In this document: positions 30,558-44,805 of the stretch, in pieces
Layout: each line of letters opens with the position of its first letter
Position numbering within the stretch: the stretch's first letter is position 1
DNA from: an uncultured bacterium
GTDB lineage: Bacteria; Planctomycetota; UBA1135; GCA-002686595
DNA length: 64,000 nucleotides
Assembly (NCBI GenBank): GCA_943787795.1
Contig: CALSNU010000001.1
Coordinates: forward strand, 736,001-800,000
Direction: 5' to 3'
Notes under the pieces: generated by a model
Told to the model about the DNA's origin: nothing
The model's database searches: none
Seen by the model: the letters and a program-made list of their open reading frames with translations, nothing else
Made by a program: the position numbers and the translations under genes

Positions 30558-31521
30558 TCACCGGCTCCTGATCAGGGACGAGCGGTCCGGGAGCGCCTCG
30601 GGCCGGGTCCGCTCCATGTCCTCCAGCCAGCGCCGGGCGTCGGTGACGTACCCCGCCGTTGGCCGTACCCCCGGGCAGACGGCCTCGAAGTGTTCGTTGA
30701 AGGCGCCCATGACCAGTTCGCGGGCGTACTTGGCGAAGCAGGAGCCCAGGGCAGTGGGGAGCGAGAGGGTGTCCCCCTTCTGGACAAAGCGAATTCGCAT
30801 GCGCCGATCACCAGAGGTCACGAGGTAGTGGCTCTCCTGACGACTCTCCGAGAGGACCCGGACCGTGGAGAAGGGGACCAGGATCGAGAGGGCCCGGCCG
30901 TAGCGAGCCCTGCCGCCAAGGCGGTCGCAGGTGAAGTCCAGCCCCTCCTCGCCGAAGCGCTCGAAGAGGTCGAGGATGACCCGCGAGTGGTACGACCACA
31001 GGGTAGTGCCCCTTGTTATCGGTTCGTCCAAAGGACTCGTTCAGGGCGCCGGCGGGGACCACGGCGACGCCTGCTGAGACCACCTCGGCATCGGCTGCGG
31101 CGAGGCTGGCCGCGAGTCGGTCGCGGTGCTCGACGAGCTCGAGCGGCGTGCAGTGGAGCGGGAGCTCCGCCGGCAGAGCGGCGTACCAAGGATGAGCCCG
31201 CAGGGTTGCCGCGGTCGGGGCAAGCCCCTCCGGAGCGCTCTCGAGCAGGTCCGTTGCGCCCCGCACCGTCGAGCCTGCCGCGTCAAGGAAGGTGAGCGCT
31301 GTGGCCTCTAGCCGCCGGGCGCCCCGCGGGTTCCTCGTGAAGACCTTCTTCGAGTCAGCGACGACGAGCCGCTCCTTGTCCCGGCCGGGAGCGTCGCTCA
31401 CCGCGTCGGGGAGCGTGCTCCAGTCCAGGGTACCCGCGCGCCGGAACGCCGAGAATCCGATGGTCAGCGGACCCAGCATCGGGCCGTAGCCGGCCTCGTC
31501 GAGGCCCGCGTGGACCGTCAT
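30558..31521 (-). CDS. RNase HII-like protein; apparent +1 frameshift at 31009-31012
   Basis: GLDEAGYGPMLGPL, ADSKKV, CDRLGGR, KGD..LPTALGSCFAKYARE, AGYVTDA. Confidence 0.75.
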
Positions 31522-31535
31522 TGGCGCGGCGCCCT

Positions 31536-32411
31536 TCACGCGCTGGCGGCGTGGTTGTCCACCGGCGCGGGCTCGCGGCGCTTGATGAAGATCAGCAGCA
31601 GGACGAGGGCGAGCGACCCCAGCACGAGGGAGACGAGCTGGGAGGTGGAGAACATCCCGTCGAACCACAGGCCGCGGATCTTGTCCCCGCGGAAGCCCTC
31701 GATGGTGAAGCGTCCGATCGAGTAGAGGACGAGGAGCACGAGGGTGACCTGACCGGCGTACTGCCTGTGCCGGATCATCCACATGCCGAAGAGCCCCAGG
31801 GCCAGGGCGTTGACGCTCATCCAGGGCTGGGTAGCCCAGAGCACCTGACCCGCGTTCTCCGCGCCGAACAGGCTGGCGTCGGGGAGCGGGTCGGGGACCC
31901 GGATCGTCAGGGGGAACGGCAGGTTCTCGGAGCCCTCGGGCACGACCTTCCCGAAGTCGTCACCCACGAGGAGGCAGCCCACTCGTCCGACGGCCAGGCC
32001 GCAAAAGCCTGCGGCGAGCCCCAGGTCCAGGGCATGGGGGAGGTGGAGGCGGTACTTCCTGGCGGCATAGAGCCCGAGGGCGATCCCCCCAAAGGTGCCG
32101 CCGTACATGACGAGGCCGCCCTCCCAGTAGTAGAGGATCGTCATGGGGTCATCGAGGTAGCGCTGTCCGGTGGCGCTGCCGCGGAAGATCTCGACGATGA
32201 CGTACATGGCCCTGGCCCCAAGGAGGATCCCCACGAGGATCCACATGGGGACGGCGGCGAACCCGGGGGCATCGGCCTCTCGGTCGACGGCGTAGCGGTC
32301 GCCGAGCTTGCCGTAGAGGTGGGTGCCGACGAGGAAGCCGAGCACCACCATCAGGCCGAAGGCGCGCAGGGGGACGCCGATCAGCGGGATCTCGAAGAGG
32401 ATCGGGTACAT
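31536..32411 (-). CDS. lgt: Prolipoprotein diacylglyceryl transferase
   Basis: MYPILF, LGARAMYV, WEGGLVMYGG, GRVGCLLVGDDFG, RFTIEGFRGD. Confidence 0.93.
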   Translation of the reverse strand: MYPILFEIPLIGVPLRAFGLMVVLGFLVGTHLYGKLGDRYAVDREADAPGFAAVPMWILVGILLGARAMYVIVEIFRGSATGQRYLDDPMTILYYWEGGLVMYGGTFGGIALGLYAARKYRLHLPHALDLGLAAGFCGLAVGRVGCLLVGDDFGKVVPEGSENLPFPLTIRVPDPLPDASLFGAENAGQVLWATQPWMSVNALALGLFGMWMIRHRQYAGQVTLVLLVLYSIGRFTIEGFRGDKIRGLWFDGMFSTSQLVSLVLGSLALVLLLIFIKRREPAPVDNHAASA

Positions 32412-32584: not shown

Positions 32585-33424
32585 ATGAACACGCCCCCCA
32601 AGGCCAAGCTCTTCGTCGAGGGGCGCTATCTCAAGCACTCCCGAGACCTCCCCCAGACGGTCTTCTTTTGTCCCGAGTGCAAGGGGCACCCCCGGAGGCG
32701 CCGCAAGTGCGAGAAGTGCGAGGGGTTCGGCAAGCTCACCAAGGACTCGGTCCAGGAGCTCATCGGCTGGGTGCTCGGCAAGGCCGCGGGGACCCGCAAG
32801 CACAAGTTCCACGGCGCCGGCCGCGAGGACGTCGACGTGCGGATGCTCGGTGACGGGCGCCCATTTGTCATGGAGCTGGTGGACCCGCGGGACCACCAGG
32901 TGGACCTGGCGGAGATCGAGGCGACCATCAACTCGCGCAACGAGGGGCGGCTCGAGGTGCGCGGGCTGCACTGGACCCAGAAGGGCAGGGTGCGGTTCCT
33001 CAAGGAGGGCACCTTCGCGAAGGAGTACTGCGCCCGCGTCGAGGTCGACCAGCGGCCGAGCGAGGAGACCGTCGCGGCTCTGATCGGACGCCGCTACGAG
33101 GTCGCCCAGCAGACCCCGAGCCGCGTGGCGCACCGCCGAGCGGACAAGGTCCGTGAGCGCTGGATCGAGGTGCTCGACGTGCAGCTGGATCCCGAGGAGG
33201 ACCTGTTCCTCAGCGTCACCATTCGGACCCAGGCGGGGACCTACGTCAAGGAGGCCATCAGCGGCGAGGGCGGCATGAGCCAGCCGTCCATTGCCGAGCT
33301 CCTCGGGGTCGGCAGCGCCAAGTGCGCGAGCCTCGACGTCCTCGCGATCCTCGATCAGGAGGAGGGCGAGGAGGCCGGTGAATCCAACCCGACCTCATTG
33401 GGGTTCGGGTCAGGGCTCTCCTGA
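32585..33424 (+). CDS. pus10: Pus10-family tRNA pseudouridine(54/55) synthase, catalytic domain only
   Basis: GRYLKHSRDLPQT, CxxC..CxxC, SVQELI, FHGAGREDVDVRMLGDGRPFVME, KEYCA, QQTPSRVAHRRAD, GTYVKEAISG..G...PS, LDV. Confidence 0.88.
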   Translation: MNTPPKAKLFVEGRYLKHSRDLPQTVFFCPECKGHPRRRRKCEKCEGFGKLTKDSVQELIGWVLGKAAGTRKHKFHGAGREDVDVRMLGDGRPFVMELVDPRDHQVDLAEIEATINSRNEGRLEVRGLHWTQKGRVRFLKEGTFAKEYCARVEVDQRPSEETVAALIGRRYEVAQQTPSRVAHRRADKVRERWIEVLDVQLDPEEDLFLSVTIRTQAGTYVKEAISGEGGMSQPSIAELLGVGSAKCASLDVLAILDQEEGEEAGESNPTSLGFGSGLS

Positions 33425-33432
33425 GCAGCGCG

Positions 33433-33530
33433 CTCCTCGGTCAAACCAGTCCGGTCCCGTCAGTCCGGTCGCGCCAGTACGGTCAAGTCCGTCCGGCCAA
33501 GACGGCTCGGCCAAGACGGCTCGGTCACGC
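33433..33530. repeat. Degenerate 14-bp tandem array x7 (core CGGYC)
   Basis: ctcctcggtcaaac/cagtccggtcccgt/cagtccggtcgcgc/cagtacggtcaagt/ccgtccggccaaga/cggctcggccaaga/cggctcggtcacgc. Confidence 0.75.
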
Positions 33531-33880
33531 CTGGCTCGGACTGGGCCAGCGTGACTCGGCAGGGCGGCCGCGCATGCCGGGCCGCTGCCGCGGTGCAGGC
33601 CGTGATTTCGCAGGAGCCCAGTTGGCTCCGGTCGTCCCGTCGACCGGGCGGTTGGCCGTGCGGGTGGTCGTGCGGGTGGAGGGGCGGGTCACGCCGCCCC
33701 ATGCCCGTGGGGCCGATTCGCTCGCTGGTGACGTCGGCGTCGCCGTGACGGCGCGTTCCCGTGACGGGATGCTGACCGGCCGGGGCCGCTGGGGTGACGC
33801 TGCCCGGGACAAGGCCCTGCGTGGGTCGCGACACTGCACGCGTCGCGACATTGCGCGCGGCGGGAGACTGAGTGGTTGGA

Positions 33881-33928
33881 GGCTCTGCTGGGTCGAGAAT
33901 CTGCCGGGTCGAGACTCTGCCGGGAGGT
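33881..33928. repeat. 16-bp tandem repeat x3
   Basis: ggctctgctgggtcga/gaatctgccgggtcga/gactctgccgggaggt. Confidence 0.75.
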
Positions 33929-33934
33929 CTCAGC

Positions 33935-34435
33935 TCAAAAGAGCACGCCCATGACCGTCGCCTCGAAGACCCTCTTGGGCTGCAGCACGCCATCGCGCTC
34001 CACGAAGCCTTCGGCGCTGTACTTGAACATCCGGCTCCCCGCGCGCTCGAGCTTGACCGCGAGGAACATCGTGCAGGGCGGCTCCACAACGCCGCGGAAG
34101 CGGCAATCGTCCACACCTCCGAACCCGACGAAGCGCCCGTCAGACTCCTCCACCCTGTGCTTGGAGTAGTCGAAGGAGGCGATCTGCGCCGCCGTCTCGA
34201 TCATCAGCGCCCCGGGGAACATGGGGCGGCCAGGAATGTGATCCTCGGCCCACCAGTCCTCGCTCCGGATGGCCTTCACGCCAACGGCGATCCCGCCCTC
34301 CGCATCCACGTAGGCGAGGTGATCGAGCACAGCGAAGGTCCCCCGCTGCGCTAGGTATTCGTCCAGCGTCGCGCGGTTCACCGCGACGTGGGTCCGATCG
34401 ATGCTCTCTAGGTCGAGGATGGGTTGGATCGACAT
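33935..34435 (-). CDS. fabZ: 3-hydroxyacyl-ACP dehydratase (FabZ/FabA family)
   Basis: HIPGRPMFPGALMIETAAQ, FGGVDDCRFRGVVEP. Confidence 0.8.
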   Translation of the reverse strand: MSIQPILDLESIDRTHVAVNRATLDEYLAQRGTFAVLDHLAYVDAEGGIAVGVKAIRSEDWWAEDHIPGRPMFPGALMIETAAQIASFDYSKHRVEESDGRFVGFGGVDDCRFRGVVEPPCTMFLAVKLERAGSRMFKYSAEGFVERDGVLQPKRVFEATVMGVLF

Positions 34436-43788: not shown

Positions 43789-44805
43789 ATGAACACCGGC
43801 TCACTCAACGAACGAATCACGCGCGCTCTCGCCTTCATGCTCCGTCACCAGCCGGAGGAGTTCGACCTCGAACTCGACCGCTTCGGCTGGGGGGACCTCG
43901 AGGACGTGGTCTACGCTCTTCAGGAGCGTACGGGCTCCACGGTGGAGGAGGAGGACGTGGCCGAGGCCATCGAGTCCAGCGATCGACCGCGGTACGAGAT
44001 CAAGGACGGCAAGATCCGCGCCCTGTACGGGCACTCGATCCAGATCGACCCCGGTGAGGCCACCGAGCCGCCGGACGAGCTCTTCATCGGCGTCGGGAGT
44101 CGTGACGCCTCCCGGGCCGAGGACAGCGGCCTGCGGAGCGGCCGACGCGCGTTCCTTCACCTCGCTCGAACCGAGGAGGAGGCGAGGGAGTCGGGGCGCC
44201 GTATCGCCCGCGACTACGCCGTGGTGACGGTCTTCGCCGGCGAGGCTTTCGACGAGGGCACCGAGTTCTATGACCGCGGCGCCCTCTTCCTGGCGGACGA
44301 GATCCCCGGTGAGTTCCTCGAGGTCGGCGAGATTCAGCATGACGGCATCGAGCGCGACGAGAACCGACGTTCGCGCGGCCGCCGCAACGCGGACGGTCCC
44401 CGTGGATCACGCCGCGGCCGAGGTCGCGGGCGCGGTCGAGGTGGACGTGATGACGAGCGGTCGTCGAACTCGGACCGTGACCGGGACCGCAGCGAGCCTC
44501 GTCGCGACCGCGAGGAGCCCCGCCGCGAGGAGCCCCGCCGCGAGGAGCGAGCGCCTCGCGAGGCGGAGGCTGCGCCTGCGGAGTCCGGCTCATTCGGAGT
44601 CGGTCTCGCCGGAGCCGCGGCCCGGCGCGCCGAGGACACGGAGCGATCCAAGCCGGAGCCGAGGAAGGCCCAGGACCAACCGAAGACTGAGCCGAAGACT
44701 GAGCCGAAGACTGAACCGAAGGCCGAGCGTAAGCCTGAGCCTCGCAAGCAGGATCGTGAAGAGGAGCCGGGGTCGGCCCCCTCTGGATTCGGCGCGGGAC
44801 TGTAA
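43789..44805 (+). CDS. kptA: RNA 2'-phosphotransferase (Tpt1/KptA family) with long low-complexity C-terminal tail
   Basis: FMLRHQPEEFDLELDRFGW, IRALYGHS, GRRAFLHLA. Confidence 0.8.
   Translation: MNTGSLNERITRALAFMLRHQPEEFDLELDRFGWGDLEDVVYALQERTGSTVEEEDVAEAIESSDRPRYEIKDGKIRALYGHSIQIDPGEATEPPDELFIGVGSRDASRAEDSGLRSGRRAFLHLARTEEEARESGRRIARDYAVVTVFAGEAFDEGTEFYDRGALFLADEIPGEFLEVGEIQHDGIERDENRRSRGRRNADGPRGSRRGRGRGRGRGGRDDERSSNSDRDRDRSEPRRDREEPRREEPRREERAPREAEAAPAESGSFGVGLAGAAARRAEDTERSKPEPRKAQDQPKTEPKTEPKTEPKAERKPEPRKQDREEEPGSAPSGFGAGL

Follow-up and report, generated by a model that had tools for sequence, protein, structure and literature searches.

A 279-residue protein of an uncultured planctomycete is a catalytic-domain-only member of the Pus10 family of pseudouridine synthases, and comparative evidence suggests, at a probability of roughly four in five, that it works alone as a tRNA Psi55 synthase and has taken the place of TruB, the usual bacterial enzyme for this site, in the bacterial order of Saltatorellus ferox. 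The gene (pus10, 32585..33424, forward strand), assigned from TIGR01213, Pus10_C, the structural model and the 2v9k fold, lies in the window, that is, the whole stretch of 64,000 nucleotides that was analysed. It represents a known family and no new chemistry; nevertheless, it is a well-supported catalytic-domain-only form, and its presence in bacteria contradicts three reviews (2021, 2023 and 2025). In their available text, the family is described as ‘not in Bacteria’ (PMC7912444), as confined to higher eukaryotes and archaea (PMC9957541) and as ‘absent in bacteria’ (PMC12710931). No published report of a bacterial Pus10 was found in a literature search whose reach excluded most subscription papers. 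The target and activity of the protein, as well as the direction and donor of the transfer discussed below, are what we infer from these comparisons.

The reading frame is intact from the ATG at 32585 to the TGA ending at 33424, and its identity as a Pus10-family catalytic domain is confirmed. The NCBIfam model TIGR01213 scores 256.3 bits (cut-off 200, E 4.4e-76) over profile positions 160-401 of 402, while the second-ranked pseudouridine synthase family, Cbf5, reaches 19.1 bits against a cut-off of 242; TruB, TruD and RluA models are not listed in NCBIfam at E up to 1, and TruA, TruD, RluA and RsuA give no match in NCBIfam (E<=1) or Pfam (E<=0.01). The only Pfam match is Pus10_C (PF21238, 199.5 bits against a cut-off of 27) at residues 10-255, and the only sequence match among solved structures is human PUS10 (2v9k, its residues 288-518, E 4.8e-29). 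The sequence-only reading had listed a series of Pus10 motifs and had assigned the family from them; all are present in the stated order (GRYLKHSRDLPQT at 13-25, C29xxC32...C42xxC45, FHGAGREDVDVRMLGDGRPF with D82, KEY148, QQTPSRVAHRRAD, GTYVKEAISG...PS and LDV), and the profile search yielded no better-matching family. Identity as TruB or Cbf5 was rejected, as no TruB model matches, the HxGxLD motif and the PUA domain are absent and the active-site motif reads GAGRED. The start codon is correctly placed, M1 being kept in at least 90% of the rows of a 60-row alignment; a longer start at the upstream TTG 32468 was rejected since the added segment lacks conservation. Some close relatives of the gene are already named Pus10 in NCBI annotation.

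An AlphaFold2 model built from the 60-row alignment (mean pLDDT 93.4) has the fold of a pseudouridine synthase, including the forefinger and thumb loops, and resembles PUS10 most; its catalytic domain spans residues 8-256 and is followed by an acidic tail (257-279) of low model confidence. The top fold match is human PUS10 2v9k (E 1e-23, rmsd 2.2 A over 257 columns, 30% identity), which nevertheless differs by a 285-aa accessory domain and by the absence of a Cys loop from its forefinger; TruA is the next family (E 3.6e-10), followed by TruB/Cbf5 (E about 1e-7). The window enzyme would act on the same nucleotide and T-loop as bacterial TruB (TIGR00431, PF01509), which forms a separate family.

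The functional residues were mapped to MjPus10 (that of M. jannaschii) by motif and spacing rather than from the Mj sequence itself, and their conservation was counted in 116 Pus10 copies from the planctomycete order. The forefinger loop C29-V56 (32669..32752, forward strand) carries CxxC...CxxC with a 5-residue basic insertion (HPRRRRK region) and corresponds by spacing to ffl1 plus ffl2 of MjPus10, ffl2 (Cys238-Val249) falling on C45-V56. Its four Cys residues occur in 116/116 copies and probably form a zinc site; the loop between the Cys pairs measures 9 aa in 96/116 copies and a short 4 aa in 8/116, as well as 4 aa in 12/12 named Iainarchaeota/Micrarchaeota-labelled proteins. The active-site motif FHGAGREDVD (32807..32836, forward strand) holds the flipping Arg80, the catalytic Asp82 (32828-32830) and Asp84, the equivalents of Mj Arg273, Asp275 and Asp277; R80 and D82 are present in 116/116 copies and D84 in 106/116, with Asn in the other 10. 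Tyr148 (33026..33028, forward strand; Mj Tyr339) is found in 116/116 copies, while the thumb loop QQTPSRVAHRRAD (33107..33145, forward strand) bears His183-Arg184 (Mj His376-Arg377), each in 115/116. GTYVK (33236..33250, forward strand) supplies the hydrophobic Val221 and the salt-bridge Lys222 (Mj Ile412/Lys413), the latter in 115/116 copies with one gap, and LDV (33332..33340, forward strand) supplies the stacking Leu250 (Mj Leu440) in 113/116 with three gaps. Hence, all seven catalytic-core residues (R80, D82, D84, Y148, V221, K222 and L250), whose roles in MjPus10 are described in the available part of the structure-function study (PMC3753934), including the need of Tyr339 for Psi54, are conserved in the order. 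Archaeal Pus10 (TIGR01213, COG1258; MjPus10) therefore shares with the window protein the catalytic domain, GREDxD and these core residues, and MjPus10 also the long Cys-bearing forefinger and the His-Arg thumb. In contrast to archaeal Pus10, the window protein has a bacterial host, no N-terminal zinc region or THUMP domain and a length of 279 aa rather than about 400-470; further, most copies of the order carry the basic forefinger insertion, and a TrmY partner is absent.

That the open reading frame begins at the catalytic domain and lacks the THUMP domain, as had been read from the letters alone, is borne out at the level of protein, locus and genome. Only 7 residues precede the catalytic domain, the N-terminal four-Cys zinc site is absent and Pfam finds no N-terminal accessory domain (PF22023 or PF21237). 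Two N-domain profiles, one built on 102 Pus10s of Iainarchaeota type and the other on 33 Pus10s of other planctomycetes, detected no THUMP-like segment, fused or separate, upstream of the gene, in 96 loci of the order or in the six frames of the genome (best E 0.37), although the two profiles find each other (25/33 planctomycete N-domains matched); neither a split gene nor a separately encoded THUMP domain came to light. In addition, a stop lies fewer than 75 codons before the catalytic domain in 49/94 loci of the order with a closed upstream frame. As the canonical two-domain architecture is lacking, the protein is classed as a THUMP-less variant, which completes a size series of about 400-470 aa (zinc region plus THUMP), about 340 aa (THUMP only) and about 280 aa (catalytic only). 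The Pus10s of 33 sampled planctomycete genomes outside the order have space for an N-domain of 85-110 aa, and three representatives give weak matches to Pus10_THUMP_arc. The idea that the basic forefinger insertion substitutes for THUMP was rejected as a rule, since the loop is short (4 aa) in 8/116 copies that lack THUMP, and basic insertions also turn up in some copies that carry it.

The proposed function draws on the distribution of the two enzymes in the order. The search covered 112 genomes of 72 genera, comprising the window genome and others of roughly 90% completeness or above; 111 yielded Pus10_C and none TruB_N, the TruB search being positive in 14/14 named control genomes. TruB is also absent from the complete chromosome of S. 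ferox Poly30 and from a second single-contig genome of the order, while five TruB/Cbf5 query proteins retrieved nothing better than E 0.06 from the window's own genome (84.9% complete). A single genome of good quality (G377, 94%) has neither enzyme. These 112 genomes represent one lineage and hence one event. The gene is thus a native core gene of a bacterial order, in line with the bacterial context first proposed for it, and is the only Psi55 synthase candidate found there. Replacement of TruB at U55 is what we infer most strongly, given its absence from all 112 genomes, and the tRNA T-loop role suggested by the sequence-only reading gains support from the same counts.

Loss of the THUMP domain is compatible with such a role. 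According to the available part of the MjPus10 study, a 17-mer T stem-loop already suffices as a substrate (PMC3753934), so that an enzyme without THUMP is plausible; binding of MjPus10 is nevertheless stabilised by RNA beyond the T arm (PMC3753934), and efficiency or target may therefore have changed after the loss. Human PUS10 is described as not needing the CCA end, to which THUMP would bind (PMC9957541, available text), and archaeal Pus10 is reported to form Psi55 in E. coli truB-trmA mutants (PMC7912444, available text). Canonical GTTCRANNC T-loops are present in 41/45 ARAGORN tRNA calls, and the other four lack a CCA end and look spurious. Taken together, the retained residues, the canonical T-loops, the 17-mer substrate and the CCA-independence of human PUS10 make T-arm-directed Psi55 formation likeliest. 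The forefinger loop, with its probable zinc, and the His-Arg thumb would hold the T stem-loop (GUUCRANNC) between them, U55 would be flipped out and isomerised with Asp82, and the acceptor-end contact otherwise given by THUMP would be dispensed with.

The enzyme may, in addition, possess the dual specificity of M. jannaschii Pus10 and form both Psi54 and Psi55, with unmethylated Psi54 replacing ribothymidine; judged from gene and residue content, we lean somewhat against this extension. In its favour, the full-length forefinger, Arg80, Tyr148, Leu250 and the thumb His-Arg are kept in 113-116 of 116 copies, and the forefinger loop, Arg, Tyr, Leu and thumb His-Arg are the Psi54 determinants of MjPus10 in the portion of the study available (PMC3753934), where the Psi55-only Pus10 of P. 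furiosus is credited with Asn-Ser in the thumb and a shortened forefinger. Neither of these features occurs in the window protein, which belongs to the same family. Furthermore, TrmA and TrmY are each found in 0/112 and TrmFO in 8/112 genomes of the order, with TrmFO in 0/56 of the other genomes in the window's family. On the other hand, an RlmD-type methyltransferase, present in 102/112 genomes (one copy in the window genome, TIGR00479 273 against 183.6 bits), could methylate U54, as RlmD-like enzymes have turned into tRNA U54 methylases in Thermococcales and Nanoarchaeum (PMC7337903; PMC7912444; available parts), and P. furiosus Pus10, which makes only Psi55 in vivo, coexists with such a methylase, maybe as here. 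Families f3 and f100, which have TrmFO, do not differ in these determinants, so their retention alone gives no Psi54 signal. Psi54 formation is also described as the more fragile Pus10 activity, aided in vitro by N-terminal Cys residues (PMC3753934, available part), whereas the entire N-domain is gone here.

Several observations on the methyltransferases of the order stand beside this question. TrmFO-type genes occur only in f3 and f100 (e.g. G138, G366-G369, G356-G358), and the 9 TrmFO-positive genomes showed no tendency to lose the Psi54 determinants. In family f3, TrmFO is present in 5/5 genomes and RlmD in 0/5, so TrmFO may modify rRNA there, having seemingly taken over from RlmD as the folate enzyme has in Mollicutes; this takes some weight from the argument that these families provide against Psi54. 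In family f2, many genomes have 4-6 RlmD-family matches, and in three cases examined by eye (G044:C21, G376:C247 and G371:C80) such a match lies within about 3-5 kb of pus10.

As to origin, the order's Pus10 probably derives from a DPANN archaeon of Iainarchaeota/Diapherotrites type (Diapherotrites being, as we take it, the same as Iainarchaeota and within DPANN). A FastTree analysis of 187 catalytic domains (134 library representatives, left from 150 once 16 fragments had been dropped, with 52 planctomycete loci and one haloarchaeal protein) places the order as one clade (support 100) inside a short-N-domain group (support 97), and a 71-row tree of a subset picked by the analyst (LG+C20+F+G4) recovers the clade of the order with Iainarchaeota-type rows again (SH-aLRT 97). 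Of the 120 best relatives of the sister group, 15 carry organism names, all of them archaeal (10 Diapherotrites/ainarchaeum, 2 Micrarchaeota and 3 ‘archaeon’), and the nearest cluster in the Atlas is 90% archaeal. The Diapherotrites/Iainarchaeota Pus10s (about 330-350 aa) are the nearest group in all trees at 38-45% identity and also lack the N-terminal CxxC pairs, but differ in retaining a THUMP-like N-domain of about 95 aa and in having K, R or A for the thumb His. Donor assignment draws on about 243 alignment columns, with weakly supported deep branches. The order's families with two or more rows form separate branches in both trees, as expected under vertical descent. Phylogeny with archaeal Pus10 and host-like codon use hence favour the old, ameliorated archaeal acquisition that had been proposed, and the direction from archaeon to bacterium is suggested by how widely Pus10 occurs in archaea and by the absence of THUMP being a derived state. 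On this model, the ancestor of the order would have gained a Pus10 already without the N-terminal zinc region; the THUMP domain would then have been lost, and truB too, in whichever order.

An unlikely alternative is that Pus10 entered the Planctomycetota once, or reached the order from another planctomycete, in which case only THUMP would have been lost and the Iainarchaeota grouping would be an artefact. It draws on the 33 other Pus10-positive genomes from 14 other planctomycete families, on the weakness of the deep branches and on an AU test that fails to reject a clade joining the order to the main 12-row planctomycete group (deltaL 46, p 0.067). The same test, whose p-values are approximate (short searches, 50 iterations, one seed), nevertheless rejects a single clade of all planctomycete rows (deltaL 59, p 0.0135); the order sits with Iainarchaeota-type rows in three analyses, and composition should draw the GC-rich planctomycete rows to one another, not to Lys-rich archaeal rows. 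Acquisition from a DPANN archaeon is therefore preferred, with nesting in and sisterhood to the Iainarchaeota-type rows being indistinguishable (p 0.52). Four outgroup rows could be named via their clusters, three as archaeal and one as bacterial; the latter (P0168) is a full-length 429-aa Pus10 with Ca. Bipolaricaulota/Acetothermia named in 4/5 cluster members, so that bacterial Pus10 extends to a second phylum beyond planctomycetes.

In an even sample of 301 Planctomycetota genomes, Pus10 is present in 49, TruB_N in 148 and both in 2 (family f45), such that TruB accompanies 2/49 Pus10-positive against 146/252 Pus10-negative genomes; family f86 includes a genome with Pus10 alone (G232) and another with TruB alone (G200). 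Neither enzyme is found in 106/301 genomes or, at good quality, in 61/190, and TruB is absent from 61/161 Pus10-negative genomes that are at least 90% complete. TruB has thus often been lost without Pus10 in this phylum, Psi55 may be dispensable here and the tRNAs of planctomycetes with neither enzyme may lack Psi55 or receive it from another enzyme. These losses lend some weight to a rather improbable reading, in which TruB disappeared independently, the tRNAs of the order are without Psi55 and Pus10, after loss of THUMP, was retargeted to an rRNA loop or to the T-loop of tmRNA or RNase P RNA. THUMP is the part that binds the tRNA end (PMC9957541, available text), and U54 methylases are known to shift target after transfer (PMC7912444, available text). 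However, Pus10 and TruB are near-exclusive over many separate families and never coincide in the THUMP-less order, the residues of the thumb and of the forefinger have not changed, and human PUS10 can do without the CCA end. Very improbable indeed is a catalytically idle remnant or a mere tRNA chaperone, a reading prompted by the missing THUMP domain and by the non-catalytic roles given for nuclear human PUS10 (PMC9957541, available text), as the catalytic Asp, Arg and Tyr are invariant in all 116 copies and the gene is kept in 111/112 genomes. Displacement of TruB by a tRNA-directed Pus10 remains the preferred reading.

The phylum sample also held other archaeal-type proteins. Weak extra Pus10_C matches in five genomes (G010, G057, G065, G082 and G241) were excluded from the Pus10 count, and four of them were rejected as Pus10 on being recognised as Cbf5 or Cbf5-like (L165:1264-2292 in G057, L166:282-1511 in G082, L168:1228-2235 in G241 and L167:493-1656 in G065). 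These four Pus10-negative genomes thus have an archaeal-type Cbf5 instead of TruB, three passing both Cbf5 cut-offs and one falling below; two belong to family f52, and with 69-89% completeness and short contigs, contamination is possible. In family f57, where pus10 includes THUMP, it stands divergently to rnpB, the gene for RNase P RNA, in 7/7 loci tested (L019, L024, L025, L028, L111, L116 and L122); the window and six other loci do not show this arrangement. A broader proposal, that the order makes both Psi54 and Psi55 by a single-domain DPANN Pus10, with plain Psi54 and no ribothymidine, and that Planctomycetota swapped TruB for archaeal enzymes several times (THUMP-less and THUMP-bearing Pus10s, possibly Cbf5), is tentative and, taken as a whole, doubtful.

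The locus itself has the character of its host. GC is flat across the window (0.66-0.73), and pus10 lies inside the range of 11 window genes in GC3 (0.93 against 0.81-0.98) and CAI (0.75 against 0.59-0.88), just as its codon usage had been described. The divergent neighbour, an Lgt-like prolipoprotein diacylglyceryl transferase (31536..32411, reverse strand; TIGR00544 82.8 bits, below the 118.9 cut-off), is present in 87/96 pus10 loci of relatives, and the convergent neighbour, a FabZ-like dehydratase (33935..34378, reverse strand; NF000582 62 bits, below cut-off), in 71/96, this set including the window itself and 16 loci that reach only 1.5 kb each side. Beyond lgt, an ORF with a GLDEAG motif (about 30558-31520, reverse strand), presumably RNase HII, adjoins lgt and pus10 in 83/96 loci. 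The close relatives of the gene are Planctomycetota, including a 73%-identical pus10 on the complete chromosome of the cultured S. ferox Poly30. Bacterial flanks in related genomes, proposed at the outset as a check, are accordingly shared, and the suspicion of a chimeric contig did not hold in view of the S. ferox copy, these flanks and the 111/112 genomes. Archaeal contamination, which the metagenome-type assembly (84.9% complete) might suggest, is barely conceivable against a 1.45-Mb contig, 0.57% contamination, flat GC, host-like codons, the recurrent lgt neighbour and the chromosomal copy of a cultured strain.

A mobile origin was rejected, with no match in phages and one weak match on a haloarchaeal megaplasmid; the latter (Natronococcus, L130:2501-3208) is a long-branched Pus10 paralogue with the catalytic motif GQEADD and a degenerate thumb, possibly inactive or retargeted. 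Promoter and terminator scans at pus10 found none, with only short chance-like repeats downstream, and no Rfam family was detected within the window. The stretch between pus10 and the fabZ-like gene (33425-33934) comprises about 500 bases with short degenerate repeats, and an extra 14-base repeat unit is inserted at 33493 in one metatranscriptome contig. Marine metatranscriptomes (four runs of one study) provide short contigs over pus10 and equally over the non-coding stretch behind it, at a depth of about 1-16, so DNA is a possible source. Elsewhere in the window, the product of an ORF at 43789-44805 (forward strand) is Tpt1/KptA-like, resembling an RNA 2'-phosphotransferase (116.9 bits at best, short of the cut-offs), and its C-terminal tail is long and charged.

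In this case, an archaeal non-orthologue would have displaced a near-universal bacterial tRNA enzyme across a whole lineage. Transfers of translation-related machinery from archaea to bacteria are rare, and the source of this one was apparently a DPANN lineage. A natural THUMP deletion kept across 72 genera provides a probe of the role of this domain in Pus10 and of the choice between Psi54 and Psi55, and a protein so small and of a single domain is well suited to supply the Pus10-RNA structure that is still missing. S. ferox Poly30 is a carrier in culture.
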